A stretch of 64,000 nucleotides of DNA from Octopus vulgaris (Eukaryota), in NCBI GenBank assembly GCA_951406725.2, contig OX597825.1, positions 68,448,001-68,512,000 of the forward strand. The letters run 5' to 3'. Position numbers and translations under genes: made by a program. This document shows positions 3,809-64,000 of this stretch, piece by piece. Within the stretch, counting starts at the first letter, position 1. Each line of letters begins with the position of its first letter. The notes under the pieces were generated by a model. The model was given only the letters and a program-made list of their open reading frames with translations. It did no database searches and was not told the origin of the DNA.

Positions 3809-4423
3809 GTGATGATGATGGTGATGATGGTGATGGTGATGGTGATGATGGTGATGATGATGGTGATGATGGTGATGATGTGATGATGATGATGATGATG
3901 ATGGTGGTGATGGTGATGATAATAAGGAGGAGAAGGAGGAGGAGGAGGAGTTCCCATACTTGCACAGATTGGATGGATTTATGCTTTTCCAATCAGTTGT
4001 TATTTTGAGTTCTTCGTGGGATTTAATTTGCTCAAACTCTGCATTCTTTGTGCCGGGAAGTATGTAAACATTTGTAATGTGTGAACCAGTGTTCTTTCAG
4101 TAACAAATGATGATCGATGTCACATCTCAAAAGACAACCACTAGATAACATTGAAAAATGTATTAATTTGATTCACCATCCATAATCTATCTTTTGTCCT
4201 TATGACCTCTGCCAAGGCCCAGTCTGGGAATCGAAACCGCATTCTTACGACTGCGAGTCCACTGCTCTAACCACTGGGCCATTGCGCCTCCACTGACGTT
4301 GGTGTTGCCTTGGCAGAGTTTGTGCTCTCTGAGTGTTCTTTATATGTAAAATACTACAATCAGCTGTCATTTTTGACAGTACGGGGGGCGGGGGCAGCTA
4401 ATTAATATATATATATATATAGT

Positions 4424-4826
4424 ACCGCAATGACTGGCCTCCGTGCTGAGGGCACGTAACAAACACCATCCGAGCGTGGCCGTCCGCCAGCCTCGTCTGG
4501 CACCTGTGTCGGTGACACATAAGAAAACACCATCCGAGCGTGGCCGTCTGCCAGCCTTGTCTGGCACCTGTGTCGGTGGCACATAAAAAACACCATCCGA
4601 GCGTGGCCGTCTGCCAGCCTCGTCTGGCACCTGTGTCGGTGGCACATAAAATCACCCACTACACTCTCGGAGTGGTTGGCGTTAGGAAGGGCATCCAGCT
4701 GTAGAAACACTGCCACATCTGACTGGCCTGGTGCAGCCTTCGGGCTTCCCAGACCCCAGTTGAACCGTCCAACCCATGCTAGCATGGAAAGCGGACGTTA
4801 AACGATGATGATGATGATGATGATGA
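4424..4826 (+). mobile_element. SINE family C with (GAT)n tail and internal ~60-bp triplication; other copies 790(-), 24495, 26925, 28720, 32500(-)
   Basis: GAGTGGTTGGCGTTAGGAAGGGCATCCAGCTGTAGAAAC...GCATGGAAAGCGGACGTTAAACGATGATG. Confidence 0.85.
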
Positions 4827-5664
4827 TCTCCAGGTCCACTGTGATTGAACAGATCTCTGTAATATGTATAAAATTAGTCAGCAATTAGTATGTAATTCTT
4901 GGTAGCAAACTATTTATCATACAATTTATTATATAACACTCCATGGTACATAATTTATAAATAAATAAAAACACATTAAAAGAACAAACAAACAAGCATA
5001 AATATTTGTGTGAAGTGACCAGGAAGTAATTAAATAGAAGTAGAGAAGTAAAGAGTGAAAAAAACTAATTAAGCCTGACAACTTAATAGTTTGGCTTATG
5101 TGAAAGTGAAAGTTTTTTTTCTGGGTTCTAGGTGAATTTCCCTACAATGATTTATCTCTGTGTGTGTGTGTGTGTGTGTGTAGTTGTATGTATGTGTGGT
5201 TGTATGTGTGCATGTGTGGTTGTTTGTGTGAGATTGCGTGTGATTGTATGTGTGTGTGTGCGTATGTGTTTGTATGGGTATGTGTGTGCGTATGTGGTTG
5301 TATGGGTGTGTGTGTGTGATTGTATGTGTGTGTGTGCGTATGGGTGTGTGTGTGTGTATGTGGTTGTATGGGTGTGTATGTGTGATTGTATGTGTGTATG
5401 TGTATGTTTGAATGGGTGTGTGTGTGCATATGTGGTTGTATGGGTGTGTGTGTGTGTGTGTGTTTGAATGGGTGTTTGTGTGCATATGTGGTTGTATGGG
5501 TGTGTGTGTGTGTGTGTGTGCGTATGCGGTTGTATGGGTGTGTGTGTGTGGTTGTAGATGAATTGTATCCATAGATAAATTGTTGTAGACAAATTAGCTG
5601 GATACCATTTCTCTGTATGTATGTTTAAATCCACACTAATACACACACATATATACATATGTGG

Positions 5665-6047
5665 AAGCACTCCGTCGGTTACGACGATGAGGGTTCCGGT
5701 TGATCTGAATTAACGGAACAGCCTGCTCGTGAAATTAACGTGTAAGTGGCTGAGCACTCCACAGACACGTGCACCCTTAACGTAGTTCTCGGGGATATTC
5801 AGCGTGACACAGAGAGTGACAAGGCCAGCCCCTTGAAATACAGGTACAACAGAAACAGGAAGTAAGAGTGAGAGAAAGTTGTGGGGAAAGAGTACAGCAG
5901 GGATCACCACCATCCTCTGCTGGAGCCTCGTGGAGCTTTAGGTGTTTTCGCTCAATAAACACTCACAACGCCTGGTCTGGGAATCGAAACCGCGATCCTA
6001 TGACCGCGAGTCCGCTGCCCTAACCACTGGGCCACTGCGCCTCCACT
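5665..6047 (-). mobile_element. SINE family D (tRNA-derived head GGAGGCGCARTGGCCCAGTGGTTAGGGC); other copies 1308, 8213, 16333, 23160, 35558(+)
   Basis: A/B-box-like head and shared body/tail across copies. Confidence 0.85.
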
Positions 6048-6335: not shown

Positions 6336-7113
6336 CCTTTGCAAAACAGTTACTTTTTAATTCTTTTACTGGTTTCGGTCATTTGACTGTGGCCATGCTG
6401 GAGCACCGCCTTTAGTCAAGCAAATCGATCCCAGGACTTATTCTTTGTAAGCCTAGTATTTATTCTATTGGTGTCTTTTACCAAACCGCTAAGTTACGGG
6501 GACGTAAACACACCACCATCGGTTGTCAAGCAATGTTGCGGGGACAAACACACACACATATATGTATACATATACAAATATATACAACGGGCTTCTTTCA
6601 GTTTCCGTCCACCAAATCCATTCACAAGGCTTTGGTTGGTCCGAGGCTATAGTAGGAGACACTTGCTCAAGGCTCAAACCCCGCTAAAGGTGGCATTAAA
6701 ATAACAGCAAAAAAGTGTCAGAAACGATCGGACCGAAACATTTGTTCGACAGGATTTCTTCCTCTGAACATTTCTCCTGCTGTCCGTTCAACTCTTAGCG
6801 AGTTTCCACTTACTAAGGCAGATATTAAACCAATTATATTTTACAACGAATTATTAGTGTAACAGAGAATAAATCTAAGGTTGTAGAAAAGGTATCTCTT
6901 TACTCTCTTTTACTTGTTTCAGTCATTTGACTGTGGCCATGCTGGAGCACCGCCTTTTAATCGACAACTCGACCCCGGGACTTATTCTTTTGTAAGCCCA
7001 GTACTTATTCTATTGGTCTCTTTTGCCGAACCGCTAAGTAACGGGGACATAAACACACCAGCATCGGTTGTCAAGCAATGCTAGGGGACAAACACAGACA
7101 CACAAACATAGAC

Positions 7114-7162
<49 letters not shown>

Positions 7163-7303
7163 TATAAGAGAGTGGTCACTATATTGATCACTCTAGCACC
7201 AGTTAATCCAAAAGGTTTCAACCACGAAAAATACATGTTTCCCATGAAAGCCAGTACGACTGTTAGCTCACACGGACAGGGCAAATAAAAAATAACAAAA
7301 ATA

Positions 7304-7397
7304 CAGATTATTTTGGGACAATTGTTTCGCTATTAATGAATTAAATGTAATATTACTTACAATAATCCATTTGTAGCTCTTCAGCCAAGACTATCTG
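7304..7397 (-). ncRNA. Type I hammerhead ribozyme (mirror copy)
   Basis: Reverse complement of 7647-7740. Confidence 0.85.
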
Positions 7398-7646
7398 GAT
7401 GAAATCCACTCAATCACACGCCAGATTTTACCATAACGATAAATACGCGTGCGGTTCAATTGATTACATCGGACGTTATAATTCAAATGCCCCAACAAAC
7501 AGCGCGCCAAACTCTCACGGAAAACAAATACAGCATTTAGAAATAAATGCAGCATAATTATAATTAATTAATAAGGGTGAGAGAATTAGATACTAATTTA
7601 ATAGTATATTTATTCCACACCGGCGTGTGATTGAGTGGATTTCATC

Positions 7647-7740
7647 CAGATAGTCTTGGCTGAAGAGCTACAAATGGATTATTGTAAGTAATATTACATT
7701 TAATTCATTAATAGCGAAACAATTGTCCCAAAATAATCTG
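7647..7740 (+). ncRNA. Type I hammerhead ribozyme
   Basis: TTGG-CTGAAGA-GCTA..TAGC-GAAA-CAATTG-TC|CCAA; palindromic stem III (ACAATTGT); stem I extends CAGAT/ATCTG. Confidence 0.85.
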
Positions 7741-8765
7741 TATTTTTGTTATTTTTTATTTGCCCTGTCCGTGTGAGCTAACAGTCGTACTGGCTTTCAT
7801 GGGAAACATGTATTTTTCGTGGTTGAAACCTTTTGGATTAACTGGTGCTAGAGTGATCAATATAGTGACCACTCTCTTATATTTATTTTGTGAAAATATT
7901 ATAATATGTTATAAAATATTATAATAATCCAGGTTTCTCGTAGCACTAGGCCACTTGGTGTGGAATAAATATACTATTAAATTAGTATCTAATTCTCTCA
8001 CCCTTATTAATTAATTATATATATATATGTATATGTATATGCATACACGACGAGCTTCTTTCAGTTTCCGTCTACCAAATCCACTCACAAGGCTTTGGTC
8101 GGCGCCACGCAGTGGGACTGAACCCGGAACCATGTGGTTGGTAGACAAGCTACTTACCACACAGCCACTCCTGCGGAATGTCGCTATCCAGCTGTAGTTG
8201 TGAAAATTGTTGGCACTCTGTCGCTTACGACGACGAAGGTACCGGTTGAACCGATCAACGGAACAGCCTGCTCGTGAAATTAACGTGCAAATGGCTGAGC
8301 ACTCCACAGACACATGTGCCGTTAACGTAGTTCTCGGGGATATTCAATGTGACACAGAGTGTGACAAGGCTGGCCCTTTGAATTACAGGCACACCAGAAA
8401 CAAGAAGTGAGAGAAAGTTGTGGTGAAAGAGTACAGCAGGGATCACCACCATCCCCTGCCGGAGCCTCGTGGAGCTTTTAGGTGTTTTCGCTCAATAAAC
8501 ACTCACAACACTCTGCGAATCGAAACCGCGAGTCCGCTGCCCTAACCACTGTTCCATTGCGCCTCCACGGTTGTAAGAATTAAGTTATCAATATTTACCA
8601 TATATATATACATTTAAATGTATCCAACAGAAGATCGTAATTATTTCATGTTAGAAAAACGAAAAAGATAATAATGCAAGCGTGTGTCTCTGTGGGTGCA
8701 AGTTGAGTGTCAGTTTATGTATGTGTGAGTAAAACATTCCTTGTAAGAATTTAACCTGTGGCGTA

Positions 8766-9267: not shown

Positions 9268-9296
9268 TGTTTACATTGGTCAGTTACCATAGCAAC
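9268..9296 (+). promoter_or_regulatory. Ciliary-type promoter module: Forkhead site TGTTTAC (9268-9274), inverted CCAAT (9275-9279), RFX X-box GTTACCATAGCAAC (9283-9296)
   Basis: Near-palindromic X-box consensus ~310 nt upstream of the ATG of a tubulin-glutamylation gene. Confidence 0.75.
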
Positions 9297-9605: not shown

Positions 9606-9666
9606 ATGGAAGAAAACGTCTCAGAAATAATGCAACGAATAACATTTTCCGTTGTGAAATATTTAG
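9606..9666 (+). CDS. TPGS2: TPGS2 coding exon 1 (MEENVSEIMQRITFSVVKYL-E)
   Basis: ATG at 9606, 61 nt, phase-1 donor G|GTAAAT; aligns by eye to vertebrate TPGS2 'LEKLTLGITRILE'. Confidence 0.85.
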
Positions 9667-15235: not shown

Positions 15236-17036
15236 TGCAGACCTCATTTGAGTCTTTTTATTATCACTAGGTCACACATAGTCTCCAGATGGTAACATTG
15301 ATTTCAAGCCCTTCCCAGATGAGTGACTGGTTATTCAAATACATTTATAGATTGTAAATTTATTCCGTCCAGTTATGTATCAGTACAGTGGTCATTTGCA
15401 AACTCTACAGGTGACACTTTCATTTCTCTTTAGCCCTCACATCACACAGTTGTTAATGTTTATTTCAGTTGGGTCACGTCCTTCCAATTGCTATAGATTC
15501 GTAATGCATCTTACGGCTGTGCCTGTCACCTGGATGGTGAGGAATCCTACACGCAGTTGTTAATGTTTATTTCAGTTGGATCACGCCCTTCCAATTGCTA
15601 TAGATTCGTAATGCATCTTACGGCTGTGCCTGTCACCTGTATGGTGAGGAATCCTACATTAGGAGTGGTAACGACTAGTGTAGGGTAGCTGACTGCTTGT
15701 GATCATTCGTCTTTTGGTTTCCTGTAGCTTTGCTCTTTTACAAACCCAGTGGACATACATATATTTCATATTTCAAAGAAATTCAAACAATAGATATAAG
15801 ACCCAAGTTAAAAAGATTATCAACAATTCAACTTCTCTGTTTGACATTAAGACACCCACCCCCACTAGGGGCCTTAACTCCCTCATTTTAGACTTCCATA
15901 GCCTCCATTTTTCAGGAGCAAAATCCTTTTAACAGGTTCCATAAGACTAGAATTTTGGAATCTGCACAAAAAAATCTGTAGTATGGGATACATGTGTCAT
16001 GATGAGAATTTTTTTAGGGTGTGTAAAGAGGGAAAGAAACTCTCATCTGCAATTTTGATGACATTCGAATCATAGGTATTCCAGTTCATTACAGAAAATA
16101 TAACAAAAATGTCTAATTCTTCATTTGCATGTAACATGGGCAATTCTGCTAATAATGGAATAAGCAGATGTGCTTCAAGAGGAAACAGCTGGGATTTATA
16201 CTAACTACCAACATAATATATATATATATATAGATATATTTATTTATTTATTTATTGATATTTAGCAGGAGCAATAAAGTGAATCAGGGTCCAAGATTTT
16301 CATGCTTTGGCATTTATCAAACTATATTTAAAGACTCCACCGGTTACGACGACGAGGGTCCCAGCTGATACGATCAACGGAACAGCTTGCTCGTGAAATT
16401 AACGTGCAAATGGCTGAGCATTCCACAGACACGTGTACCGTTAACGTAGTTCTCGGGGATAATCAGCGTGACACAGAGAGTGACAAGGCTGACCCTTTGA
16501 AATACAAGTACAACTCATTTTTGCCAGCTGAGTGGACTGGAGCAACGTGAAATAAAGTGTCTTGCTCAAGGACACAACGCGTCGCCGGGAATCGAACTCA
16601 CAACCTTACGATCATGAGCCGAATGCCCTAACCACTAAGCCACGCGCCCTCACAAACTATATTTATATATATAGAGGATGCACTGTTTCTCTCCTTTTAT
16701 ATATATGTTGTTTTGTTGTTTTCCTGTTTCAGCTCTTGAGCTGTGGCCATGCTGGGGTACCGCCATTTATATATATAAAATTTAAAGTGAGGGTAAGAAA
16801 TTAGATATTAATTTAATTAACATCGATTTCACACCAGTGGTCTAGCATATAAAAAAACTGAAGGGTCAGTAAAATTGTATTATATACATATTAGAGGGAA
16901 ACCACTTTGTGGACACCCTTATGCTAGAAATAGATCCGCTATGGTCTTACCACTAAGAAATGTTCTCAAGAAAAATTTAGCAAAAATTATATATATATAA
17001 TATATATGTGTATCTCCTTTAAATTATATATATATG

Positions 17037-17067
<31 letters not shown>

Positions 17068-17961
17068 ATACACACAAACACACGACAGTTTCTTCTTTCA
17101 GTTTCTCTCTACCAAATCTGCTCACAGGGCTTTGGTTTCATCAGGGCTATATCAGAAGGCACTTGCCTAAGGTCCCACATAGTTGGACTGACTCCAGAAC
17201 CATTTTTTTCGGAAGTAAATTTTTTACTACACAGCCATGACTACTGATACACATACACACACACACGTATATTTACTGCGCTGACTCATTCTTTAAATAT
17301 GTAAAAATAACATTCTTTAAATATGTAAAAATAAACAGGACACTGACCATCTTCTGTAAGGGCTCTTGAGAAATTAATTAATCATCATCATCATCATCAG
17401 TAAACCTCAATGCTTGATGTGTGGGTGGTTTGCCTGAGCATGCATGAAATCTTGAATTATACCACTTGAGTCTTGTGTCCTTTCTGACATTACACACTAC
17501 TGTGAGTGGTCTCCAACAATGCCCTTCTCACAACACTCTGTAACCAATTCTAAGAAAATGAGAGACAGAAAGAGGAAGAGAAACAGAGAGAGAGATAGAA
17601 AGATGGAGAAAGAGAAAGGATTAACCCAATATCCTTTTTGCTTTTATCCTTTACTTCTTTCAGTTATTGGACTGTGGCCATGCTAGGCCATGTTGTTCCA
17701 AGTTTCTGTCATTCCTTCAAATTGTTCCAGTTAAAATCCATGATGTCCAAACTGAAGAATTTTGTTTCAGTGAGAAATTCTACTGAGAATCGTAAAACTC
17801 AACATGAATTGTATTTGTCCAATGAAAAGAAAGATTGGATGACTTTCCATGTTGGTTTGTATTAAAATTCTGTTTGTTGACTTGGTTCATTTATTATTAC
17901 TCTGGCAGAATTGTACATTATTTACATTCAACGGATATTTGTCCTCATCTTGTTTGTTGTT

Positions 17962-18007
17962 AACACAACGTTTCGGCTGATATACCCTCCAACCTTCTTC
18001 AGGTGTC
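17962..18007 (-). ncRNA. Minimal type I hammerhead ribozyme in a short Penelope-type repeat
   Basis: Minus strand GACAC-CTGAAGA-A-GGTTG..CAGCC-GAAACGTT|GTGTT; palindromic AACGTT stem III. Confidence 0.75.
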
Positions 18008-19464
18008 TTGGGGAAATTTCGAACTTGGGTTCTCATTCCTAAGGTATTTTTCGATGTTGTTTGTTTATTATTATCATTATTGTTCAGTAGTTTTATTTTT
18101 ATAGCGTGCTTTCACTTCACTACCGAGCTCAGCTCTGTGTGTCTTGGGTATGTGCTGTGATTTGTTGTGATGCTCTGATGGTGACTGTTTATTATTATTA
18201 TTATTGTTCAGGTCACTGCTTAGAATCGAACTCGGAATCTTGGGGTTAGTAGCCCACACTCTTAACCACTACGCCATATGCCCGGAGGTCTATTGTTGGC
18301 AGAACTGTTAGCATACCGTATAAAATGCTTAGTGACATTTTATCTGTCTTTGCTCCAAGTTCAAATTCTACTGAGGTTGACTTTGCCTTTCAGGATTGAT
18401 AAAATAAGCACCAGTTCAGCTCTGGGGTTAATGTAATCAACCTACCCTACACCCAAAATTGCTGGCCTTGTTCCAAAATTTGAAACCATTATTACCTCCG
18501 CCTTAGCGAAGGTAGAAGTATTGTTTTCAATGTTTGTTTGTTTGTCCGTGGACAAGATATCTCAAGAACCGCAGGATGGATTCGGATGAAACTTTCAGGG
18601 ATGATTAGATTTTGGGATCAATCTGGTACTGGTAAAGGATTCTGGTTTATTTTCCTGTTTTCTTTACTTAATTTTTGAGAGTGGTTTGGTTCATTTTTAG
18701 CATACTCGTTTGTGAGAGCAGTTGAGTTTATTTCAGATATTCTCATTTTAAAACACATCTGTGGCTAATCGTTGAGAGGATGTCAACTTTGCCTTTCATC
18801 CTTTCAGGCTTGATAAAATAAGTACCAGCTGAACACTGGGGTTGATGTAATCGATTCATCCCATTCTCCAAAAATGCTGCCCTTGTGGTAATATTTGAAA
18901 CCATTATTATTGAGTGAGAGAGCAGCACTTATCATCAAAGTGACAATAGGGTAAAATATATGAAGCCCAGTATACCTATTATGACTACCTGTTTGATAAG
19001 GGTACACCAGTCACATGCATCACAATCATATGTGCGCAATATGGTGATCTTGTATCAAGATAAACAGCACATGACCTTGCAGGTGGGACCCAGTTAGAAT
19101 TTTCTTCAGGTTGAGTAGCCCATCCTGCTCAAAAGGTCTCTGAATAAGGGTTGTTCAAGGATGTTGAATAAAACATCCATGTTTCCAAAGGTGAATTATC
19201 CAAACCCCAAAGAATCCCTCTCAACACATGGCTATGATGCTCCTCCACTACTTCTACTCATGATCAGAGATGCACATATTGTCAGCCACTAAGGGACATG
19301 CTCAGTTGGTTATGGTCAAGTAACTGACAAGCAAATCTGTGGTACTGAGCAGAATATTTGTTGTAGCCTATATTTTATACCAAGACAAAACAATGTACCT
19401 GATAACACTTCCAATCAGTTAGGATCAGAAGCCATTATTATTATTATTATTATTTCCATTTCAG

Positions 19465-38074: not shown

Positions 38075-39260
38075 ATGAACCCACTATGCCAACGACAACA
38101 ACACATGCAGCACTACATATTCCGAATGCAATGCTCCGGATACACACAAGACGATAGAGTCAGAGTGCACAAAAGAGCGAAAGCAAGATTCGAACGCATT
38201 CTAAGGGACGACGAAAATGGTATATGCCACCCTATACCGCAACAAGTTCTGGAATAGGTTAGAGAGAGACACCAACAAAAGGAAGAGAAACGATACTTGG
38301 TATGATAACAGGAAATTTCACGGGGTAATGTTCGTTGATGCCACACCTAAGAACGAGCTAAGGCATTCAAGAAAATCCTGCGCATTACTGGCCTTAAAAT
38401 TCAAGGTTGTAGAAAAGACAGGTAGGACTATCAAATCTGCATTATGCAGATCATATCCATTTGATAGAATCACGTGTCAAAGTAATTGTGCAGTACGTTC
38501 GACAAACCCACATGTGAACTGCAAAACCAAGGGCACTGTATACCAAATTGAGTGCCAAGAAGGAGCTTGCGCGACTAAGCCAGAGTCATACATAGGTGAG
38601 ACAAACCCACATGTGAACTGCAAAACCAAGGGCACTGTATACCAAATTGAGTGCCAAGAAGGAGCTTGCGCGACTAAGCCAGAGTCATACATAGGTGAGA
38701 CAAACCCACATGTGAACTGCAAAACCAAGGGCACTGTATACCAAATTGAGTGCCAAGAAGGAGCTTGCGCGACTAAGCCAGAGTCATACATAGGTGAGAC
38801 AAACCCACATGTGAACTGCAAAACCAAGGGCACTGTATACCAAATTGAGTGCCAAAAAGGTGCTTGCGCGACTAACCCAGAGTCATACATAGGTGAGACG
38901 AACCCACATGTGAACTGCAAAACCAAGGGCACTGTATACCAAATTGAGTGCTAAGAAGGAGCTTGCGCGACTAACCCAGAGCCATACATAGGTGAGACTT
39001 CTTGGAGTATCAATGATAGGTTCAAAGAACACCTGGACAACTACATTGAAAAGAAACCAAACTCCATCTTCTATCAGCATGCTGTAGACTGCCACAAGGG
39101 ATCCTTAGGGAAACTTAAGTTAAACATCCTATCAACACATCCCACCGTTGCAATGTTGAGACAGGTCACAGAAGCTGTTTGCATACAAGAATACAAACCT
39201 ACTCTCAACCGAAAATCCGAATGGAGTGACATCCAAATCCCATTCAGGAGGACCATTCTA
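38075..39260 (+). mobile_element. Penelope-like element 3' fragment, GIY-YIG endonuclease with 5 x 99-bp internal tandem
   Basis: SGY..R, FVDATP, 'GTVYQIEC...SYIGET', RFKEH, 'RQVTEAV.I...LNRKSEW'. Confidence 0.9.
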
Positions 39261-40250
39261 TAACCACCCCTCTCTCTCGTTTACATGTAATCCTTACATA
39301 CATGTTGAAATGCGTGGTGCTAAAACACTTATGTGCAGTTATATGTAACCGTATGAGCGTACGTTGTTTGGTACGTATGTGGTGCTATAAAAAAATGCAC
39401 ATATGAGTATGTATGGATGTATGCATTTATGCATATATAAAAAAAAAGAGCAGATAGGTTAATATAATGCATGTTCGATTTTTAACCGTTGCCCTTGAAT
39501 ACTGTGTCGTATTTTGTATGTGTGTGTGTGTATGTATGTAGAAGTGGATAAGCATATATGAGTGTGTCTATATGATTGTGTGTACTTGTGTATATGTATA
39601 TGGCTATATGTGCACAGTTGCACCTAAACGTATCCATTCACCGTTAGATGATGATGAGGGACAAACACACATATATGTGTGTGCGCGTCTATATAAACAT
39701 GTGTGTATATATACAACCTTCAACAAAGTAACAGTCATGTACACAACTTGGACGGACACATACCAGTACACGCACACACAGACGTCTGCCCATTCTCCTA
39801 GATACTCACGTACATGTACACACATACATACGCACATGCGTACGTATGTGCATACACACATACATACGTAGATATATATAACTTGAACTAACTAAATGTA
39901 AAGGAAAAAAAAAGAAAAGTAAAAGTAAAACAAAAGTTTTGAGATATAGAGATAAGTGGCTGATAATAGGTTTTAGAGTTTTGTTGTGGGGGTAAGGGTC
40001 GTAAATCACTTCCTAGTTTTTTTTTTGGGGGGGGGTTGAAATTTGATGTAATGAGTGGTCAGTCTACACCTATCCATCACTACAGGTTTATAGCGTTAAG
40101 TTTATAGTGTGTGTGCGTGCATATACACATACATACACACACACACACATGCGTACGTATGTACATACATGCATGCATGCATACATACATACACACACAC
40201 GTACATATATATATAACGAACTGTTACTTTCTCAGATGCAGCACGGATTT

Positions 40251-40439: not shown

Positions 40440-42800
40440 AATGCAATTCTTTGGACTAACAATGTTTGTGGCTGAAGAGAGCTTTAAACCATCTTTTATA
40501 TCAATAATACACTGATGTAATTAACGGATTGATCATAAAGCTTGAAACACGTGTACCACGATATCCTTTGTGTTCTGTTTTTAATTTTATTTGATATATA
40601 TATGGACTCCTGGAGGCTAAAACAGCCAATCAAACCCCTGACATCACCCCTACATTACAAAATCTAATCAAATCTATAGAGACAACAATACCTCCAAAGC
40701 AGGAACATACTATAGACTGTTACTCAGTTAAAAACACCTGGATTAAAAATCTCAAAGCACGCAAATTTGCTTCCTGGAACTTCATAAAAAATAATAACAA
40801 AGCAGACATTTATGAAATGTGGCTCAACTCCACCCCAATCATCCTACCCAAAAAATTGCAAATGAAGCCCATCCGAAATGAACCAGAAAATCAACAAAAA
40901 CTCAGGGAGAAACTAGCTTTCGAAAAATTCAAAACAGAGAAATAGAACTATTGCAGCTCAGAGCCAATGCTAGTGAAGAAAAATTCAAGACCCTTGACAA
41001 TGAAATGCAGATTGAAATCTCAAAACACTGTGAAGGAGCACTCTTTGATAAAACCACCAAACACTGGAGAATAAACTGCGAGGATGAAGAAATTAAAATA
41101 ACTCCAACGAATAGAAAATAACAGCTGGTTCGCCAATTATGAAACAGAGTTCAAAAACGAACACCGTACAAGCAACCCATATTTTTAAAAATTAACTTCA
41201 ACTCACATCCCTCACCAAAAGCAAAGAAAACAAATCACAAAACATGCACCACCCCTAACTTTGACAAAAACAATAACAGGACTACAACCCCATCAAAAGA
41301 ACCCAGACACCCACCAACACAAGACAAAACTTTACCAGACAATGTAGACCCCAGCCCACACAAGAATTGCTCCAGAATCAGAGATCCTACCCACCACATA
41401 GGAATCTACCTCTGAACTATGATTGTAGATCCCAACCCAAACCATTCCAAACTCGGAGTTCCCTCCCAACATATAAGAATTCACCTCTAGACCATGAATG
41501 TGGTTTCCAACCCACTCTAAGGAACCAACATTACACTCAGTACGAACAACCCAGACCCTGAAATAACCAAAACTCTTCCAGTAGGTCACTCCAACAACCC
41601 AGACTCTGGAACAACCAAAACCCCTTTAGCAGACAACATATCAATGGGGGAAAGAACAACGCACACCAAAATACCGCAGATAGAAGAACCCCCAGGAATA
41701 ATTTTTTAAGCAAGGGCATCAGTTTCCATGACACTAGATGGTAGATACCAACCCCGAAAAACCAAAAATAGTGAATCTCTCAAATCTAAACCTATCAACA
41801 CAACAAATCGAAATCCTTTCAAAAGGACTAAAATTCACCCCAACTCCGCAATACCCTAACCTGAGAAAAATACAGGATGACATCTCACACTTTTGCAGGA
41901 AATTACGCCTCACAGAGGAATTTTTTGACAAAGAAACTAATAACGACGAATCAATGGTTCATGACAAAAGCAGCTATAATCCCATAAAAGGCAGAAACAA
42001 AACCTTAGACAAATTTTGCGACTACATCTCAAACTTCTCTTATAGTGAACTCCCACAACCTAAACCCAACACCAGTAAAAGGGAATGGGAAATCACCCGT
42101 ATGCTACGAGACAATCATGACGTCACAATAAAGGAAGCAGATAAGGGTAGTACGGTCGTTGTTATGAATACTGAGCAATATAAAAACTCTGTATCTCACC
42201 TTTTAGAGGATACCACACACTATGAAAGAGTAGTTGACTACCAGCAATCCAAAACAATGACCAAATTGAAGGCAGTCATTTACCAACACTGGAATGACTT
42301 AACAGCAAAGGAATGCGACTACATAAACTTTAACTGCAAAACCAGCACGCTCTATGGGCTTCCAAAAATACACAAGGGTGAAATTATTACAGAAGCTTGC
42401 AAAAAGTCCACTTCAACCTGCATCGCTATACCACATCCCACTGATCTCAAACTGAGACCAATAGTGGCAGGCCCCAAACTGTGAAACACACAGACATAGC
42501 AACTTTATCGATATCATCCTGAAACCAATACTGAAACACATTCCAAGTATTGTAAGAGATGACCTGGACCTATTAAATCATCTCCCCAAACATTCCGATA
42601 AGGACACTTTAATCGTCTCCTTTGATGTAATAAACCTTTACACTACGATCCCACATGAATATGGACTGGAAGTCATTAAATTCTGGCTGGATAAATATCC
42701 CAATGAGATCCCGGAAAGAATAAAAAGAGAATTCATCATCAAGGGCCTAAAATTTATTCTCCAAAATAACTTTATGAATTTCAATAATAACACTTACAGA
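40440..42800 (+). mobile_element. Penelope-like element 5' part (hammerhead leader, N-terminus, RT to motif A/B)
   Basis: NLS..LSKGLKFTPTP, IKEADKG, YGLPKIHK, LRPIVAGP, SFDVINLYTTIPH; stops/frameshifts. Confidence 0.92.
40466..40560 (+). ncRNA. Type I hammerhead ribozyme at 5' end of a Penelope-like element
   Basis: GTGG-CTGAAGA-GAGCTTTA..TAAAGCTT-GAAA-CACGTG-TA|CCAC. Confidence 0.85.
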
Positions 42801-42849
42801 CCTGCATCATTCATCATCATTTAACGTCCGTTTTCCGCATCTCAAACCA

Positions 42850-45090
42850 TACTAATGACCATATGGAAGCACAGTTCACTATAGCTAGGACCAAACTTAG
42901 ATTTTAGAACTATACACTAAGAGACAGAGGCCCAACTTGGGATTAAACCTGCATGTGGCCTACGTAAGCTCATTCAGCGCACGAGGAACGGAGAGGTGGT
43001 ATGCCTTCCCACAGATAAGTCCGGCAGGATGTCAAGAGACAGCTTACCGAACTACATCCAGGCAATGCAACCTCATATCGCCAATACAAAAATAACAACT
43101 TTACAGGCACATGAGGAGAGAGAAAAGGTCCTCAACGCCCATATGATGATGTGGACAATTGTTCTGGGACCCCAGAAACGTACAGCAAAGAATTTCCAAG
43201 CCTGGAACAATGATATCCCGGCACTGTATGGACTTTGCAAGGACCATAAAGTAATTACTGACCCTATAGCAGGACCACCAACAAGACCAGTCTGTGGAGC
43301 GAATATCGCTAGCAATTACAGGATCTACTTCCTCTCAATGATCATACGCCCTATAATCCGGATGTCACCTGATCTCCTCAGCAGGATCAATGACTGTAAC
43401 AACACTTGCGACCTGACAAGATGTATGGTGGGTAGCATGGATGTGGTATCCCTATACCCATCGATCAACGTAGATTTTGCGGTGGAGAAGTGCGTGGAGA
43501 TGATCAACAAGAGCGAGGTGGAGTTCCGCAATGTCAACACAGAGGAACTGGGCCTCCTACTTAGACTGATATGTAATAATGAATACTTAGATAAACATAA
43601 TCTTAGTAGTTTCTGCCCCAGTAGACGTTTAAGAGGTAGACCACCCACAATTACTTCTATGGCTAGGAAGACCCATATAGAGAGATGGAGCAGATGGACC
43701 AGAGCCATACGGACCCCCTCAAATGTCCATCAGGTAAAGAAAATGATCGCACATGCATTAGGAGCTAGCATAAGAGTTACCCTAAAAGGCCACACGTTTA
43801 AGTTTAACAATAAAATATATGCCCAGGACGAGGGGACAGCCATCAACGTTAGTATCGCCGGTAACGTGGTCAACCTTTTCATAGTATGGTGGACAGAAGG
43901 TTTAAGGAACGCCTAACACAGAACTCCATACTCGTGAACATGTACTCTTGCTATGTTAATGATATCAACATAGTGGTAAAGGCACCCCCCACAAGAGAGT
44001 AATGTTGATATAGAAACTAATACTATGGAGAGCATTCAGCAAATAGCTAACTCCATCCACCAGAGTATTAAGATCACGATAGACTACCCTACTAAACACC
44101 CTAACCATAACTACCAGTACTAGACACAGAACTCTGGCTAGAAACTGAGAATAATAACACCCAAATCCTTCATTCATACTATGTCAAACCTATGGCCTCC
44201 AAATACTTGATCCACCGGAACTCAGACATCACGGACAATGCCAAATTCAATATTTTGATGGCAGACCTCGTCAGAATAATGCAAAATGTGTCCCACATGT
44301 GCGAGCCTACAGAGTTAAAGTGACACATACAACATTTCGTTCACCGCATGCAGGTTACAGCCATAAAGAAAGGATCAGAGTATACAAAGGAGCCATGAAG
44401 AAATTTGATACTATCTTATGTAATGATAGGAATGGGATTCAACGCCCACTCTATAGGAGCAGTCATGGAACACTATTGAAGGGATAAAGAAGAAAATAGG
44501 GAAGGCCAAATCTTGGTATGATAGCCACAAATACCAGAGTGTCATGTTCGTCAACGCGACCCCTAGAGGTGAACTGGTGTACCGCTTTAGAAGGGCCCTA
44601 GACAAATTTAAGCTAAGGATTAAGGTCATAGAAAGGCCAGGCAACCCTATCAAATCCATAATTGGTAGAACCTCCCCTTTTAGTAGAACCCCCTGAACGG
44701 ATAGGAACTGTACTGTGTGTAGATTTAGCCCACAAACGGCTAAGCCAGAAATGTAGTCTATAGTATAAGATGTATAGAGGGACAATGCAGTAACAAGACG
44801 ACATATGTAGGAGAAATGGCATGGAGCATAGGAGAGTGGGTAAATGAACATTGGAGAGAACTTAAGGAAGGAAAGAGCTCATCAGTTCTGTACCAACACG
44901 CCAAGCAGGAACACGGGGGTTCAATCAACAACATAGAAGTAAAAATCTTGTCCACACATAGAACAGATGCAACAATCAGACAAATTACGGAAGCTACACA
45001 CATAATAGAAGATAAACGTAGCCTGAATAGGAAACTGGAATGGAACACTAGCACACACTACATGTACTTTTCATATTTTTTTATATTGTA
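42850..45090 (+). mobile_element. Penelope-like element (second clade), RT + GIY-YIG, disrupted
   Basis: PTDKSG, PTRPVCGA, GSMDVVSLYPSI, YVND, FVNATP, YVGE, 'RQITEA..I...LNRKLEW'; same clade as 38075-39260. Confidence 0.9.
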
Positions 45091-45209
45091 ATGTAATTCT
45101 TTGAACTAAGAACAATGTTTTAGAGAAGTGAAAGTTGGCGGGTGCTTTTCGTCTTCTCCCATCCTTATCATCCTTGCATTATTATCATTCATCCCATTAA
45201 TGTCTGCGT

Positions 45210-52377: not shown

Positions 52378-52799
52378 AATGTAGCTATGTATGTATTATG
52401 TGTGTGTACGTATGTATGTGTATGAATGTATACGTGTGGGGGGGTTGGAGTTGTGTAGGCGTAAGGTACATGTGCGTGTGTGCGTTTACGTGCGTGTACC
52501 TGTACGTCTCAGCTAGGTGTTTATAGGAGTGTGCGTATCTGTATGAGTATTGTCCCTGGTCTGTGTGCACGGGCATGTGTGTGTGTGTGCGCGTGGGGGT
52601 GTGTATAGGTGTGGAAGTATGTGTGCGTACATGTGCATGTACGTTGTGTGTGTGTGGTGTGTTGGGAGTAGGTGTGTTCGTGGGTACGTGAGTGTGTGTG
52701 TGTGTGTGTGTGTGTGACTGCATAAGGACAATTATAAAAATTAAAAAATATAAAATAATTAATAAACAAAAAATAAAAGATGCTAGTGGGGGGAAGTGG

Positions 52800-55410
52800 A
52801 GTGCAGTCACTAAGAGGAGGGCCTGTGTTGAGTCCGTGTGGGGTTAGAGTCTGTAGAAGGAATATGAACCGTTGCTCCAAGTGAAGCCTAGATTGTGGAG
52901 AGCCGTTGTATGGGGCAAGACCAAACACCGAGATGTCATCGAGGGAATGGCTGGCCGAGCAGAAGTGACATGCGACGGGAGAATTGGAAGGTAGACGAAC
53001 ATCCCTCAGATGCTCGGCGAATCGGTCTGACAACCGGCGTCCCGTCTGTCCTATATACAGCATCCTGCAGCGGTTGCATTTAATGCAGTATATGAGTCCA
53101 GACGAGGTGCACGTAAAGGAATACCTGATACGTACAGTTTGCCGGTTGGAACCGGTGACAGCAGTGGTGTTGGTGATGAAGGGGCAGGTGTTGCAGCGGG
53201 ATCTGGAGCATGGGAAGGTTCCGAGTGGGGCTGAGGGGAAGGGAGGGTGCTACGGACCAGGAGGTCGCGTAGATTCCGGGCTCGTTTGAAGGAGGACAGG
53301 GGTGGGTTGGGGAAAATGGGGTGGGTCGTGGAATAGAGCTGGAGACAACGGAAGGCACGAAGTATCTTCCGACGAAGGGGTAGAGTAGAGGGGTGGAAAA
53401 GGAGGGGAAAGGGGTGCGGTGATTGGAAGGAGAAAGGGCGGTGGTGCGGTCGATGCGACGAGCGCGTTCAAGACCAGGGTAGGTGGGTATCCTCGAAGCC
53501 TGAACAGGCGGGCCAGGTATTGAGACTGGGTCTCGAAATCCTGGTCGCGGCTGCACAAGCGTCGGAGGAACTGGGAGTAGGGGATGGCCCGTTTGGTGTG
53601 GAAGGGATGGGAGGAGAAGTTGAGATAGAGGTGGGAATCCGTGGGTTTGAAGAAGGCGGAGGTAGTGAGAGAGTGGGAGGAGTGGTCGATGCTGAGAGAG
53701 ATATCAAGGAAGTTAACGGAAGTATTGGATATGGTAGAAGTGAATTGTAGAGAGGGGTGGAAGTTAGAGAGGAAGGAGATGAAGTGGCAGAGTTGTTCGC
53801 AGGAAAGGGAGGTGGCGCCTATACAGTCGTCTATGTAAAGACCGTATAGTTCTGGGGTCGGCCCAGAGAATTGGGAGAATACTTGGGCCTCAATGTAGCC
53901 AACAAAGAGATTGGCGAAATTGGGACCCATTCTCATTCCCATCGCGACCCCGGACACCTGTTGGTACGTTTCCCCGGCGAACATGAAACAATTGAAAGTT
54001 AGGACGAGCTCTGCCAGGCGGAGGAGGGTGGGGGTGCTAGGGGTGGGGTCGAGGAAGTGTTGGAGAGTGAGGAGACCGTCGTTGTGGGGAATTACCGTAT
54101 ACAGTGATTTGATGTCAAGGGTGAAGAGGAGGTGTGAGGGGCTGGAAGGGAAGGAAAAGGAATTGAGGAGACGGAGGGCGTGGTTGGTATCATGTATGTG
54201 GGAAGGGAGGGCTTTGACTAAAGGGGACAGGATGCGGTCGAGGTATAGGGAAATGTGTTCAGTAGGGCAATTACAGGCGGAAACGATGGGGCGGCCAGGG
54301 GTATTGGGCTTATGAATTTTGGGAAGGAAATAGATGGTGGAGGTGCGGGGTGTGCGGACGATGAGGTTGGTGGCGGTGGGGGGGGGGAGAGCAGAAGAGG
54401 AGATGAGTTCGCGGATAGTGGAGGACACTCGCTGTTGGTAGGAAGAGGTAGGATCAGAGGGGAGGAGGCGATAGAAGAGGGGATTTTGAAGCTGGCTGAG
54501 CGCTTCTTCCCTGTAGAGATTGGCGCGCCACACCACCACTGCTCCGCCTTTGTCCGCCGGTTTGATGACAATGTCATTGCGGTGACGGAGGTGGCAAAGG
54601 GCAACCAATTCAGCCTGTGTGAGGTTGTCTCGGAGAGGTCTTTTTTAAAAATTAAACCGGTTTACCAACGCGTTGCAGTCGTTCACAAACGAGTCTAGGC
54701 TACTGAATTGGACCGGGGGCGGCGTCCAGTTGGATGGGCAGCGCCCCAGCTCCAAAAAGCAATCCTGATTGTCGTGACGCTGCGGAGACGCGTGGTAGAA
54801 GGCGCAAAGTTTGAGGCGGCGCAGGAACTGGTTGACGTCCGTCCGAGTCTCGAATTTGTCACAGTGGCACGTGAGAGGCGTGAAGCGGAGTCCCTTACTG
54901 AGGAGAGAGCGCTCGGCGGCGGAGTGGGGGAGATTGGGGGTTATAGTGACAACAGTGCGAGGAAGCGGGGTGGTGGGATGAGTGGGGTCGGGAAGAGGGG
55001 ATGCAGAGGTGTGAGGAGAGTGGGGGTGGTTAGGTGAAGTAGGGGTAGGCGTAGAAAGGTCAGGGTGGGGTGTGTGTTGATCCGTGGAGGGGGAAGGGGG
55101 GTGGAGAGAGTCGGGGGAGCTGGAGGGGAGGAAGTGGAGGAGAGGGGATGGGAAGGAGGTGAAGGGTTGAGGAGGTGGTGGAGTTTTGTTTTTTGTGTGT
55201 GTGAGGAAATTATGAAGCTGGTGGTTGAGATTAAGAATGAAGCGGAGAATAGGTTGGGTGAAGAGTGGAGGGCAGAGGGAGGAGAGAAGAAGGTAAGCTT
55301 GGGGAAGTAGGTGGTCAAAGGAGTGAAGGAGAGAGTGGGTGGAACGGATGGTAGCACGGATGAGGAGGCAGGAAGTGCGGGCAAGGGTGGGTTTGATGAA
55401 GGGAGATAAC
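52800..55410 (-). mobile_element. Nearly complete Penelope-like element (RT + GIY-YIG), disrupted
   Basis: IKPADKGG, FLPKIHK, GRPIVS, LDIKSLYTVIPH, GVAMG, YIDD, FLD, LYIGQTGRRLSDRFAEH. Confidence 0.93.
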
Positions 55411-59259: not shown

Positions 59260-61091
59260 AAGCGGAAAATTGGATTGCACGAAAGAAGAGCTCGAACAAC
59301 ATCTGAAAGAGACATACAGCGACTGACAGAAATGAAGTACTCCCAGAAATGCACGGACTGAAGAAACCACCTGAACCAAGAGTACCATTTGATTTGAGTG
59401 ACATCAAATGGAAAGAAATGGATGAGTTCATAAGAAAAGCAAGAGCAAAAAGTTCACCAGGGAACGATGGAGTGAGTTACAAAGTATACAAATATTGCCC
59501 AAAATTACATTTGCAGCTGTTTGCACTGATAAGAGAAATGTGGAAGAAGAAAGATGTAGCGGAGCGATGGTGTATAGCCGAAGGTATCTATCTACCTAAA
59601 GAAAAAGAGGCAAAATCACTAGGCCAATTTAGACCGATTTCACTACTAAATACAGCAGGAAAATCATGTTTGGAATAATTGCTAGACGAATCATAAGATT
59701 CGTACAGCATAACGGATACGTTAATGAAGCGATTCAAAAAGCAGGAATCCCTGGATGCATAGAACACGCATTTGCCATCTGGGGAAGCCATCACCTGTGC
59801 AAAACAAATGAAGAAAAACCTGTATATTGTTTGGCTAGATCTTGCCAATGCTTATGGATCTGTGCCGCACGCACTAATAAAAACAGCGTTGGACTTCTTT
59901 TGGATTCCAAAAGATGTTCAACGAATGCTCATGTCCTACTACGACAACCTGAGGATGAAATTTACAGTAATAGTGGGTGTTCATGTCCTACTACGACAAC
60001 CTGAGGATGAGATTTACAGCAGGAAAGTTCACAGCGGAGTGGCAACGGCTTGAAATAGGTATTGCAGCCGGATGCACGATATCAGTCATCTTATTCGTGC
60101 TAGTTATGGAAATGTTACTTAGATCTACAACCTGTGAGAAAGCTGTTACAAAGACACCATTAAGTGCTTTTATGGACACCGTAACTATATTATCGGAAAG
60201 TAGAGAAGCAGCAGAGGGAACGTTAGAGTGGTTGGATGAACTGATAGGATGGGCAAGGATGAAATTCAAAGCCAAAAAATCTCAATGCATGGCTTTCATG
60301 GAAGGAGTGCAAGAAGTGAAATTCAGGATAGGTGAAGACATACCAATGGTATAGAGATTTATTAAATGATAAGAAGCAAGGAAAAGAAACACACGAGTTA
60401 GTAGAACAAGGATTAAAGGCAATTGACAGAACAACGTTGCCAGGAAAATTCAAATGTTGAATACTGCAATTTGGGCTGTACCCAAGGATAATGTGGTCAT
60501 TGCAAATGTATGAATAGCTTCGAGTAGAGTAGAAAGGATGGAACAAAGATGCAGTGTGTTTATCAGAAAATGGCTTGGTCTGCCGAAACCACTGAATACA
60601 ACTGCACTATATGGAAAACCTGTGCTGCAACTACCAATAACATCAATCGCCGAAGAATATAAGGCAGGAAAGCCAAGGACAGTAATGATGCTAAGGTATT
60701 CAAAAGATCAGAGCATCTGGGAAAACCCTCCAAAGGTACAAACAGGGAGGAAATGGAAGGCGGAAGAGGCTGTAAACAGGGCGATCGGAAAACTAAGGCA
60801 CGCCGATATAGTTAGAGCAACGCAAGAAACAAGAGCTGGTCTAGGGTCGCATAATTTCAGGCCATTTTGCAATAGCAGCATAAAAGAGATGAAAGAGGCA
60901 GTGGTACACGAAATAAGAAAGGAGGAAGAAGACAGGCAAAATGTACATTTGGTGCAATGTAGTCAACAAGGACAGTGCCTGAGATGGGAGAAATATGTGG
61001 TCAGTTGCAGATTCTTGTGGAAGGAACTTTGGGCTTCGGAACAAGCAAGAACATCCTTCCTGATCAAGTCTACCTTTGACATTCTACCCTC
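59260..61091 (+). mobile_element. Hero/NeSL (R2-group) non-LTR retrotransposon RT fragment
   Basis: KARAKSSPGNDG, QFRPISLLN, QKAGIPGCIEH, WLDLANAYGSVPH, GIAAGCTISVILF, RMKFKAKKS, FLIKSTFDILPS. Confidence 0.88.
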
Positions 61092-62660
61092 ACTGGACAT
61101 GGTATACTATATAACTCTAGTACTATCCATATTGGAAGACACAACATATTATGAAAAGGCCCAACACTACAGTCAGCAGAAAATAATGAGAGACCTAAAA
61201 TCCATGTTAAACCTATACAGAGAAGAGTTCACTGACAAAGAATACGACTACATGACCAATTTCAAAAGTAAAACCAGTCAATTCTACGGGGTTCCCAAGA
61301 TACACAAAAGTGAGAAAATAAGTAACTCATGCAGGAAAGCCACAGACATGATGATCAAAGTCCCTACTCCAAATTACCTCAAATCGAGACCTATAATAGC
61401 AGGTCCCGCATGTGAAACCCACCACCTCAGTAACTTTTTAGATACCTTCTTAAAACCATTCCTCAAGCATGCCAAAAGCTACATAAGGGACAACCTGGAT
61501 ATGTTCAAACACCTTCCTGAAACAATAAACGAAAACACCCTACTAGTATCCTTCGATGTGGTCAACCTCTATTCCAATATCCCCCACAACCTAGGAATAG
61601 AGGCAATTCAATTCTGGCTAGAGAATCATGCCAACGAACTCCCACATGGCATCAAAAAAGAATTCGTGATAGAAGGGCTAAAATTTACCTTGGAGAATAT
61701 CTACTTGGTCTTCAAAGACAACATCTATTGACAAAAATCGGGGACTGCGATGGGTACGAGAATGGACCCCTCCTTTGCTAACCTAGTCGTGGGATATCTA
61801 GAAATTAGTCTTTATTGTACGGTACAAGAAAAATATGGCAACCCATTCTCTCTCTACATTGAAAATAACTGGAAGAGATACCTGGATGACTGTTTCAGTC
61901 TTTGGCATGAAAGTATAGAGAAACTTAAAGAATTCCAAGCACTTATAAATGGACTTGACGTAAACATTCAATTCACGATGGAAAATAGCCATCAACAACT
62001 CCCCTTCCTCGACATCCTCATTAAGAAATCTAACAATGTAATAGAAACAGATATATACTATAAGCTTACGGATTCCAAGCAATATCTCCCATTCAACTCA
62101 TGCCACCCCAGACACACCAGAATGAATATCCCCTTCAACCTAGCAAAAAGGATATGTACTATAGTTTCTAATACAAACACCAAGGACACACGACTACATG
62201 AACTAAAGGATACACTCATCACCAGGAACTACCCACCTTCATTAATTGTCATATGCTTTCAACGTGCCCTACAACTCAACATCCATGAACTCAGAAATCC
62301 CAAATTAAAGGAGGATTTACAACCAAAAGCCCTACCATACATCTCCACACACAACCCTCTTAACAATGAAGCCTTCAACACCATCCTTCAAAACATTTCC
62401 CGGCTAAAAAAGGACCACAGAATGAACCTCCAAACACACGCCATCATAAAAAGCAAGAGACAGCCCAAATCTATGAAAAGTCTCCTAACACAAGTCTGAA
62501 TACACTCAACAACAACACTGAAGCCATCAGCAAAAAAATGCAAAAGACCTAACTGTGGGAGATGCATCAATTTAATTGAGAGATCAGAGTTCTCCTTCAA
62601 ACAAGGACAACGTTTCAATGAAAAACAGCTTCACATGTGCTTTGGAGAACCTGATTTATT
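61092..62660 (+). mobile_element. Penelope-like RT fragment (same clade as 40.4-42.8 kb)
   Basis: FYGVPKIHK, RPIIAGP, SFDVVNLYSNIPH, GTAMG, RYLDD, LPFLD, SCHPRH, CKRPNCGRC. Confidence 0.92.
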
Positions 62661-62999
62661 ACACACATGTGAGTGAGAACACTGAGGTATTTTTGGTATC
62701 TAACATATGTCAGATACTGCGAGCGCTGCTTCTGATTGGTCAATCCATGGTGATGACCCGAGGTCATGGTGACGGCACTACTTTTGTCATTCATAAGTTA
62801 CAACTAAACTTCATTCATTACTTTCATGAGCAGGTAGAATGTAGCCATGTAATTAAACAAACATACTATCTTTTTTATACCAGATATCACTTAAAGTCAT
62901 ATACACATAAAATATTAACATTTTTGGTGGTAATTCAATTTTTTGTTGCCAAAAAAATCACAACATATTTCGTCTGCTCGTCGATACTCTTGCAGTGCA

Positions 63000-63640
63000 G
63001 GTAGATCTATCAACAAGATGGCTACTGTTGTCGATATCAAGGTGAATGATTTTGATAAGATTGATAGTAAAGATGGGGGAAGAGTGTTATCCGTTGTTCA
63101 ACCTCTTGGAACATACAGAATGTTCAAAGTGAAGATCAATACTGGCCAAGTTCGACATGTTGCTGGATACAGGTTAACAAAGGTACCTGAAACAGTGTCA
63201 TTGACGAGTGGATTGTCATCGAACCCTAGATCTAACATCCCTGATGAGGTGTACAACGAACTTCTATGTGACGATTTCTTTGATGAGAGCAATAATGAAC
63301 TTGAATTTCAACCAAGGTATGATCATTCTGGAATAGACAAATTCGTTCAAGGTAATCAAAATAAAAACACTCTTCGGAAAACAAACTATGATGTTAAACG
63401 ATTGTTTGTTTTCATGGCGACAAATGGCGACACGCGTCCAATTGAATCTATCGACAAAAGTGAACTTTGTGACATTCTCTGTACTTTCTTTATCTCGTTA
63501 CGAAAGCCGGACGGTAGCAACTATGAACCTTCATCTTTGAGGGGAATGTTATCCAGTATTGAAAGATATCTGAAGTCAAAATACTACTCGACGTCACTAT
63601 TCTCGGACAGGACATTCGTGAAACTACATGACGTACTAAT
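63000..63640 (+). mobile_element. Crypton-like tyrosine-recombinase N-terminal fragment (DUF3504/ZMYM/KIAA1958-type)
   Basis: NQNKNTLRKT..D, 'ELCDILCTFFISLRKPDGSNYEPSSLRGMLSSIERYL'; catalytic C-terminus absent. Confidence 0.8.
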
Positions 63641-64000
63641 CAAAATTCCGAAAAACAGAAAAATAGCATTCAGCCAACACATCAACATTTGTGCCAAAAA
63701 CAAAAATCCAAGTTTCAGTATTTTTCCCCTCTAACAATTCAGGGATGATACAACCTGTTGCCAACGAATTAGTAAAGAGTTGTTCTTTATCACAAAATAC
63801 AGACCCCCCCCCCTATTGAACGCATCTACAACAAATGACATATCCACCATGACCTTAGAATAACACACAAGCAAATATTAAAAATGATGCATTCAAAAGT
63901 ATTTTTCTTTTTCTTCTCTGCCAAGAATTCACACAAGAGTCAAAAAGAGAGACAGAGACAGGCAAAAACAAGGAAAATGCCCCTTGTATTTGAATACTAT

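Follow-up and report, generated by a model that had tools for sequence, protein, structure and literature searches.

Insertions of Penelope-like elements (PLEs) have been described as inverted, 5′-truncated copies and partial tandems that carry 3′ tails and favour microsatellites, and the tails are given as 30–40 nt long (PMC8557442). In vitro, the PLE protein of Poseidon_Ac (PAc) cuts and extends both target strands, starts RT at two internal positions and uses uncleaved RNA as a template (PMC11167929). Pairs of hammerheads on opposite strands, 100–700 bp apart and with a palindromic helix III, were reported as early as 2014 (PMC4209133). It has also been proposed that PLE proteins mobilise animal retrozymes, with little evidence on the life cycle (10.64898/2026.07.22.740005). 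In Octopus vulgaris, PLEs were recently active (31 families, 336 insertions; PMC13282606), and the main text of that paper does not mention ribozymes. No report of a cephalopod retrozyme was found among the literature matches listed, subscription papers and repeat libraries lying outside the scope of the search.

Here we describe an element at positions 7162–8019 of a 64-kb stretch of O. vulgaris DNA (contig OX597825.1; hereafter the window). It resembles insertions of endonuclease-bearing PLEs (Neptune, Nematis and Hydra types) as described in PMC8557442: it is a head-to-head inverted 5′-truncated copy with one arm longer at the 3′ end, a (TA)n target and a type I hammerhead in the pseudo-LTR region. 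It differs from them in that it has no ORF remnant, 292 non-coding nt follow the ribozyme cut, and the extension of the longer arm measures 137 nt, the published tails 30–40 nt.

Self-comparison resolved the element into four segments. Segment A is found at 7162–7422 on the minus strand and at 7622–7882 on the plus strand (261/261 bases complementary), and segment B at 7559–7621 (minus) and 7957–8019 (plus), with 63/63 bases identical. The single-copy segments are C (7423–7558, minus strand, 136 nt) and a spacer S (7883–7956, plus strand, 74 nt). The minus arm (7162–7621, 460 nt) reads B-C-A and the plus arm (7622–8019, 398 nt) A-S-B. Their 5′ ends meet blunt at 7621/7622, without any base in common, and TA repeats follow both 3′ ends. 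The four segments add up to 534 nt in the implied order C-A-S-B; the arms hold 460 and 398 of these, and neither contains a full unit. The B-C junction (7559/7558) occurs only once. These measurements bear out the preliminary description, which had noted identical inverted arms of ~265 bp and their permuted order (B-C-A and A-spacer-B) over a unit of ~530 nt.

In the inverted arm, A forms the 3′ end, 155 nt past the cut. In the direct arm, B provides a hairpin and an AU-rich 3′ end that is joined to (TA)n 292 nt past the cut; S and B together make up the 137-nt 3′ extension of the longer (plus) arm, the equivalent of a tail. The left part of the (TA)n target spans 7117–7161, and an AA irregularity near 7156 may represent 5 further nucleotides of the element after a TA slip. 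It was also observed that C and A sum to 397 nt, close to the 398 nt of the plus arm (C is 136 nt, S+B 137 nt). Synchronous termination of two cDNAs may lie behind this near-match.

At the head-to-head junction (7612–7629) there is a 5-bp hairpin with a 4-nt loop. It is present because A and B open with similar GU-rich words, both cDNAs presumably having stopped at like sequence; since the native starts of A and B account for it, a snap-back at the junction was rejected. A MITE or DNA transposon was rejected as well because the two termini do not form inverted repeats. Twin priming of the classic L1 type, acting on a single linear RNA, yields non-overlapping arms and was discarded, as A and B are both duplicated here.

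The arms show no differences in the 324 sites of A and B. With a calibration of 0.0036 substitutions per site per Myr, derived from a JC distance of 0.09 for 25 Myr (PMC13282606), the insertion is younger than ~1.3 Myr at the 95% level, unless conversion homogenised the arms. The earlier impression of a very young element is thereby upheld, with that proviso.

A descriptor search recognised a complete type I hammerhead in each arm, one at 7648–7739 (plus strand), with a predicted cut after 7727, and the other at 7305–7396 (minus strand), with a cut at 7317. The plus copy has its C3–A9 core at 7660–7666, a stem II closed by G10.1-C11.1, GAAA at 7716–7719, a stem III formed by an 8-nt palindrome (7719–7726) and the cleavage triplet GUC; the stem II region is 49 nt long. 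By sequence, the conserved core, an NUH cut site, stems I–III and an open stem I are all in place. Strict matches to the descriptor were absent from 2000 shuffles of the plus arm (loose matches: 2/2000), and 30 shuffles of the whole window gave one strict match in total. Rfam yielded no match in the window at the gathering threshold and 9 weak matches at the E-value threshold, no hammerhead family among them, probably due to the 49-nt stem II region. Compared with the PLE hammerheads of PMC4209133, the element shares the full core, the G10.1-C11.1 pair, a short helix I, a palindromic helix III and a second copy on the opposite strand within the 100–700 bp spacing, whereas its helix II region is much longer (49 nt), its palindrome has 8 nt, and an unpaired base between A9 and G10.1 is missing. 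The motif is a good candidate for the Penelope/retrozyme type of hammerhead that had been proposed, cut position included.

When two copies were cofolded without constraints, a dimeric hammerhead was predicted (−44.4 kcal/mol, against −17.9 per monomer), which agrees with the earlier reading of stem III as palindromic and of the dimer type. Modelling thus favours cleavage as a dimer, but strict dependence on it is not established because the active monomer fold lies only 1.3 kcal/mol above the MFE. The preliminary description had also suggested a long dsRNA hairpin. In a predicted read-through RNA all 261 bases of A pair, so a 261-bp duplex is possible, but it would trap both ribozymes.

The unit appears to be non-coding, as had been claimed. 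No frame stays open through the 292 nt between the cut and the 3′ end, there is no long ORF in the element, and comparison with 120 PLE-type proteins gave no match. The longest frame (64 codons) had no homologue among 13 candidates, which is a weak test. An ORF for RT and GIY-YIG, which would mark an autonomous PLE, is absent, but a truncated copy would lack it too.

Folding gave z-scores of −5.9 for the minus arm, −3.4 for the plus arm and −5.7 for a hypothetical 534-nt circle, while four controls from the window ranged from −1.9 to +1.8. The circle would have a GC content of 0.33 and 68% of its bases paired, with predicted structure filling the 534 nt. C and A are predicted to form a long rod around the ribozyme (69 C-A pairs); B mostly pairs with itself, and only 4 B-C pairs span the junction. 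The score of an antisense circle (z −6.3) is no worse than that of the sense one, and among three pLTR controls from PLEs the L015 region reaches −4.2, the other two giving −0.4 and −0.3. Folding does not, therefore, single out a circle, and the retrozyme trait of a non-coding, low-GC, highly self-paired unit, although present, is not specific. The head-to-tail tandem typical of retrozymes is not seen at the locus, where the hammerheads lie on opposite strands, nor is there an array in the window. The non-coding and strongly structured nature of the unit favours a non-autonomous, retrozyme-like element.

Metazoan non-LTR retrozymes, as presented in PMC7229834 and 10.64898/2026.07.22.740005, offer a further comparison. 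The element shares with them its non-coding nature, a GC content of 33%, a type I hammerhead, a self-paired predicted unit and kinship with PLEs, and 534 nt falls within the 51–972 bp range of the latter source. Unlike them, it has an inverted architecture of the PLE type with no head-to-tail tandem, and the putative unit of 534 nt exceeds the 170–400 nt of the circles that were shown experimentally.

For a wider comparison, a scan of a genome collection provided 51 PLE loci (L001–L051) on contigs filed under bacterial MAGs. They are animal-type PLE elements, some with hammerheads, and their presence in such MAGs likely reflects host contamination. The hammerhead descriptor matched 9 of the 51. 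Fifteen loci were compared with themselves, and L017, L033 and L049 turned out to represent the same autonomous PLE, all three having an inverted arm in head-to-head position (that of L033 was recognised by comparison with L017). In L017, hammerheads occur on either strand, one arm has a 34-nt tail, and two pieces that are not adjacent (4343 to 5839) are fused in the inverted arm; junctions within an arm need not, therefore, be native. The inverted layout itself is known biology, a routine product of PLE insertion, because these three loci and published PLE insertions match it; the preliminary description missed both this and the opposite-strand hammerhead pairs of 2014 (PMC4209133). A further observation concerns L015:1-8217, where PLE units of 3083 nt follow one another head to tail in almost perfect tandem, each with a hammerhead; the unit has an open frame of 891 codons. 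At the sequence level, comparison of the element with the 51 loci gave only two 18-nt chance matches. A 13-nt stretch of its hammerhead was not found in the supplement text of PMC8557442, a weak test.

Closer relatives were found within the window. A diverged, 5′-truncated one lies in a TPGS2 intron at 16772–16985 (minus strand), where it matches S+B with 78 identities, 21 mismatches and 9 gap positions (score 77; 0/1000 shuffles as high). It has the same 3′ end point as the element and likewise runs into (TA)n, so the target preference is seen at both loci. Relative to the element it contains frame-breaking gaps and has no ATG. It resembles the 3′ portion of A only marginally (25/1000 shuffles as high). 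In separate MFE predictions, on which the shared fold rests, both sequences end in a B hairpin and have a stem that closes the fold, the letters differing between the two; an alignment-based consensus fold of the two was poor, with 24 pairs, 4 of them changed on both sides.

The second relative is a decayed PLE at 40460–42881 (plus strand), recognised by the descriptor search and a protein match, with a hammerhead ahead of an RT-homologous region (41672–42881). This hammerhead (40472–40555, cut at 40555) has the same build as that of the element, with a long stem II and an 8-nt palindrome, and aligns with it at a score of 53 (0/1000 shuffles as high). Strong RT homology starts only 1.1 kb after the cut, which tells us that long leaders occur in PLEs. 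The RT region matches RT and GIY-YIG proteins of ~750 aa that carry a cysteine motif before the nuclease. According to PMC8557442, such a motif points to the Neptune/Nematis type and is tied to (TA)n targeting, which suggests that the relatives of the 40.5-kb PLE are of this type. The 40.5-kb PLE is a relative of the element, not its partner. The 64 kb hold no PLE with the same pLTR, no tandem array and no close third copy.

The window also contains a third, minimal-type hammerhead in a TPGS2 intron (17955–18010, minus strand, cut at 17967), with a 4-nt palindromic stem III; it probably derives from the pLTR of a different PLE family. Further PLE fossils with RT and/or GIY-YIG similarity lie at 52521–55082 (minus), 60988–63830, 38205–39263 and 42921–45091 (all plus). 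The minus-strand fossil keeps a 464-codon RT frame, and at 38501–38998 the stretch around a GIY-YIG motif is present as five in-frame tandem repeats of 99 bp (97% alike).

The element splits a tRNA-type SINE of the minus strand at its (TA)n. The 3′ half of the SINE occupies 6906–7116 and the 5′ half 8025–8174, a tRNA-like head with motifs that we take to be A- and B-box-like. In 9 of 11 other copies the halves are collinear and −11 to +19 nt apart, against 909 nt here; one remaining copy is without a right half, and in another it lies 385 nt away. The comparison covers the 11 other copies in which the match to the left half extends to the microsatellite, 2 of 14 left-half matches having been left out as too short. 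The head half looks ~30 nt shorter than in sister copies. Pol III transcription that starts in the SINE would probably not yield the hairpin by read-through because the first T4 run on the transcribed strand occurs at 7916.

Downstream, TPGS2 was placed by 9 exon matches (77–100% identical to the O. bimaculoides protein), with its ATG at 9606 and its first coding exon at 9606–9665 (plus strand). A perfect motif at 9283–9296, presumably of the RFX X-box type, precedes the ATG by 310 nt; none of 100 shuffles had one, and it fits TPGS2 as a cilia-related gene. It lies 1264 nt from the element, and the ATG 1.59 kb. The earlier placement in (TA)n inside a SINE, ~1.3 kb upstream of the TPGS2 promoter, is in line with these distances, the likely promoter being put at 1.26 kb by the X-box-type motif. 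A sigma-70 promoter scan was set aside as irrelevant to an animal genome. The host is an animal with heavy A-to-I editing, in which a possible 261-bp duplex near a promoter is a curiosity.

The anatomy, the motif, the target, the relatives and the predicted folds were established directly; from them we infer the enzymatic steps, the master unit and any RNA in the following account. On balance, we lean towards one retrotransposition by a PLE protein (RT + GIY-YIG), whose most likely template, used in trans, was a short non-coding hammerhead RNA from a PLE pseudo-LTR, with a unit of ~534 nt that was tandem-multimeric or circular. The endonuclease would open both strands of (TA)n inside the SINE, and each opened end would prime a cDNA on AU-rich sequence immediately 3′ of a hairpin, the two starts lying 155 and 292 nt beyond the position where the ribozyme cuts. 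Both cDNAs would cross that position, which implies a template that was uncleaved or re-ligated, and one would continue through C and, past the unit junction, into B. Neither would complete a full unit, and the two would be joined blunt, head to head. The process resembles that of PAc in vitro (PMC11167929) in the priming of both target strands, the two internal starts downstream of the hammerhead and the presumed passage of cDNA through an uncut ribozyme. In PAc, however, the starts fall within the ORF, at a stem-loop that is AC-rich and lacks homology to the target, whereas those of the element are non-coding, AU-rich and target-like.

In the parent element the hammerhead would release single units from multimers, working best as a dimer. 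The present copy is probably an inert dead end because it has no two cut sites on the same strand and no full unit in either arm, and its read-through RNA would be a 261-bp duplex; it cannot release a unit.

A real possibility, though not the one we hold probable, is that the template was an autonomous PLE. C-A-S-B would then be pseudo-LTR plus leader, the B-C junction a one-off jump that made a 63-nt partial tandem, and no 534-nt replicon would exist. PLEs normally insert as partial tandems and inverted, truncated copies (PMC8557442), and the inverted arm of L017 does contain a jump junction. That jump is a forward deletion, however, not a tandem-forming one, and one extra event would be required here. 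C+A before the cut amounts to 242 nt, just below the 245–422 nt between ORF end and cut in L007, L014, L015 and L017, so no coding remnant is expected upstream of the cut. Downstream the situation is less favourable: in L014 and L015 the distance from the cut to the start of a long ORF is 42 and 98 nt, while this young copy has 292 non-coding nt, and the 16.8-kb relative has its frame-breaking gaps and no ATG there. The end of B, a conserved start point shared with that relative, would be a natural landing site for a jump, and the 397/398-nt coincidence suits it, as the start of C could be a stop-and-jump point. The predicted structure that fills the 534 nt argues against an autonomous template.

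Several of these points weigh on the unit of the favoured retrotransposition in trans. The B-C junction, seen once, may be a template jump and is spanned by few predicted pairs; the L015 region and the antisense circle are strongly structured too; array and third copy are missing from the 64 kb; the coincidence of lengths, the 1.1-kb leader of the 40.5-kb PLE and an extension that exceeds the published tail length count against it as well. That a 534-nt retrozyme existed as circular RNA and was copied by a (TA)n-targeting PLE protein is, in our view, doubtful. The preliminary description had taken the permutation to imply a circular monomer; this step is not established, given the single B-C junction, the partial tandems made by PLEs (PMC8557442) and the precedent of L017. 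Additionally, 8 of 9 Xenopus retrozyme dimers were not cleaved in vitro (10.64898/2026.07.22.740005), another point against the favoured account.

We consider it improbable that the locus was copied, with no RNA step, from a tandem or satellite derived from a pLTR, through DNA repair or rearrangement and perhaps with conversion-homogenised arms. Long inverted repeats can indeed be homogenised. Unequal crossover may expand retrozyme arrays locally, according to the discussion of 10.64898/2026.07.22.740005. Yet both outer ends are element 3′ ends on (TA)n, the 16.8-kb relative ends at the same point, as target priming predicts, and the SINE halves are intact and collinear. An assembly or read fold-back artefact, which the perfectly identical arms and the trouble that PLE inversions cause in assemblies (PMC8557442) might suggest, is very improbable, since a fold-back has a single mirror axis for everything, whereas those of A and B differ (about 7522 and 7789), C and S each occur once, and the element is flanked by the two halves of a single SINE.

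Taken as a whole, the element works like a PLE-made insertion and probably like a retrozyme unit, though one that lacks the retrozyme tandem at this locus. For the present it counts as a commonplace product of PLEs, a class that accounts for ~6.8% of the O. vulgaris assembly (PMC13282606 supplement). Should the 534-nt unit prove real, a non-coding unit with PLE hallmarks would test whether PLE proteins mobilise animal retrozymes. If, moreover, a circular 534-nt retrozyme is behind it, the locus would preserve in the genome an instance of target priming of the PLE type on a non-coding circle, with two cDNAs that have different starts, both crossing the ribozyme junction and one the monomer junction. 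This would be direct evidence for the mobilisation of animal retrozymes in trans by the PLE machinery, and it could help to explain why permuted tandems and inversions arise when PLEs insert.
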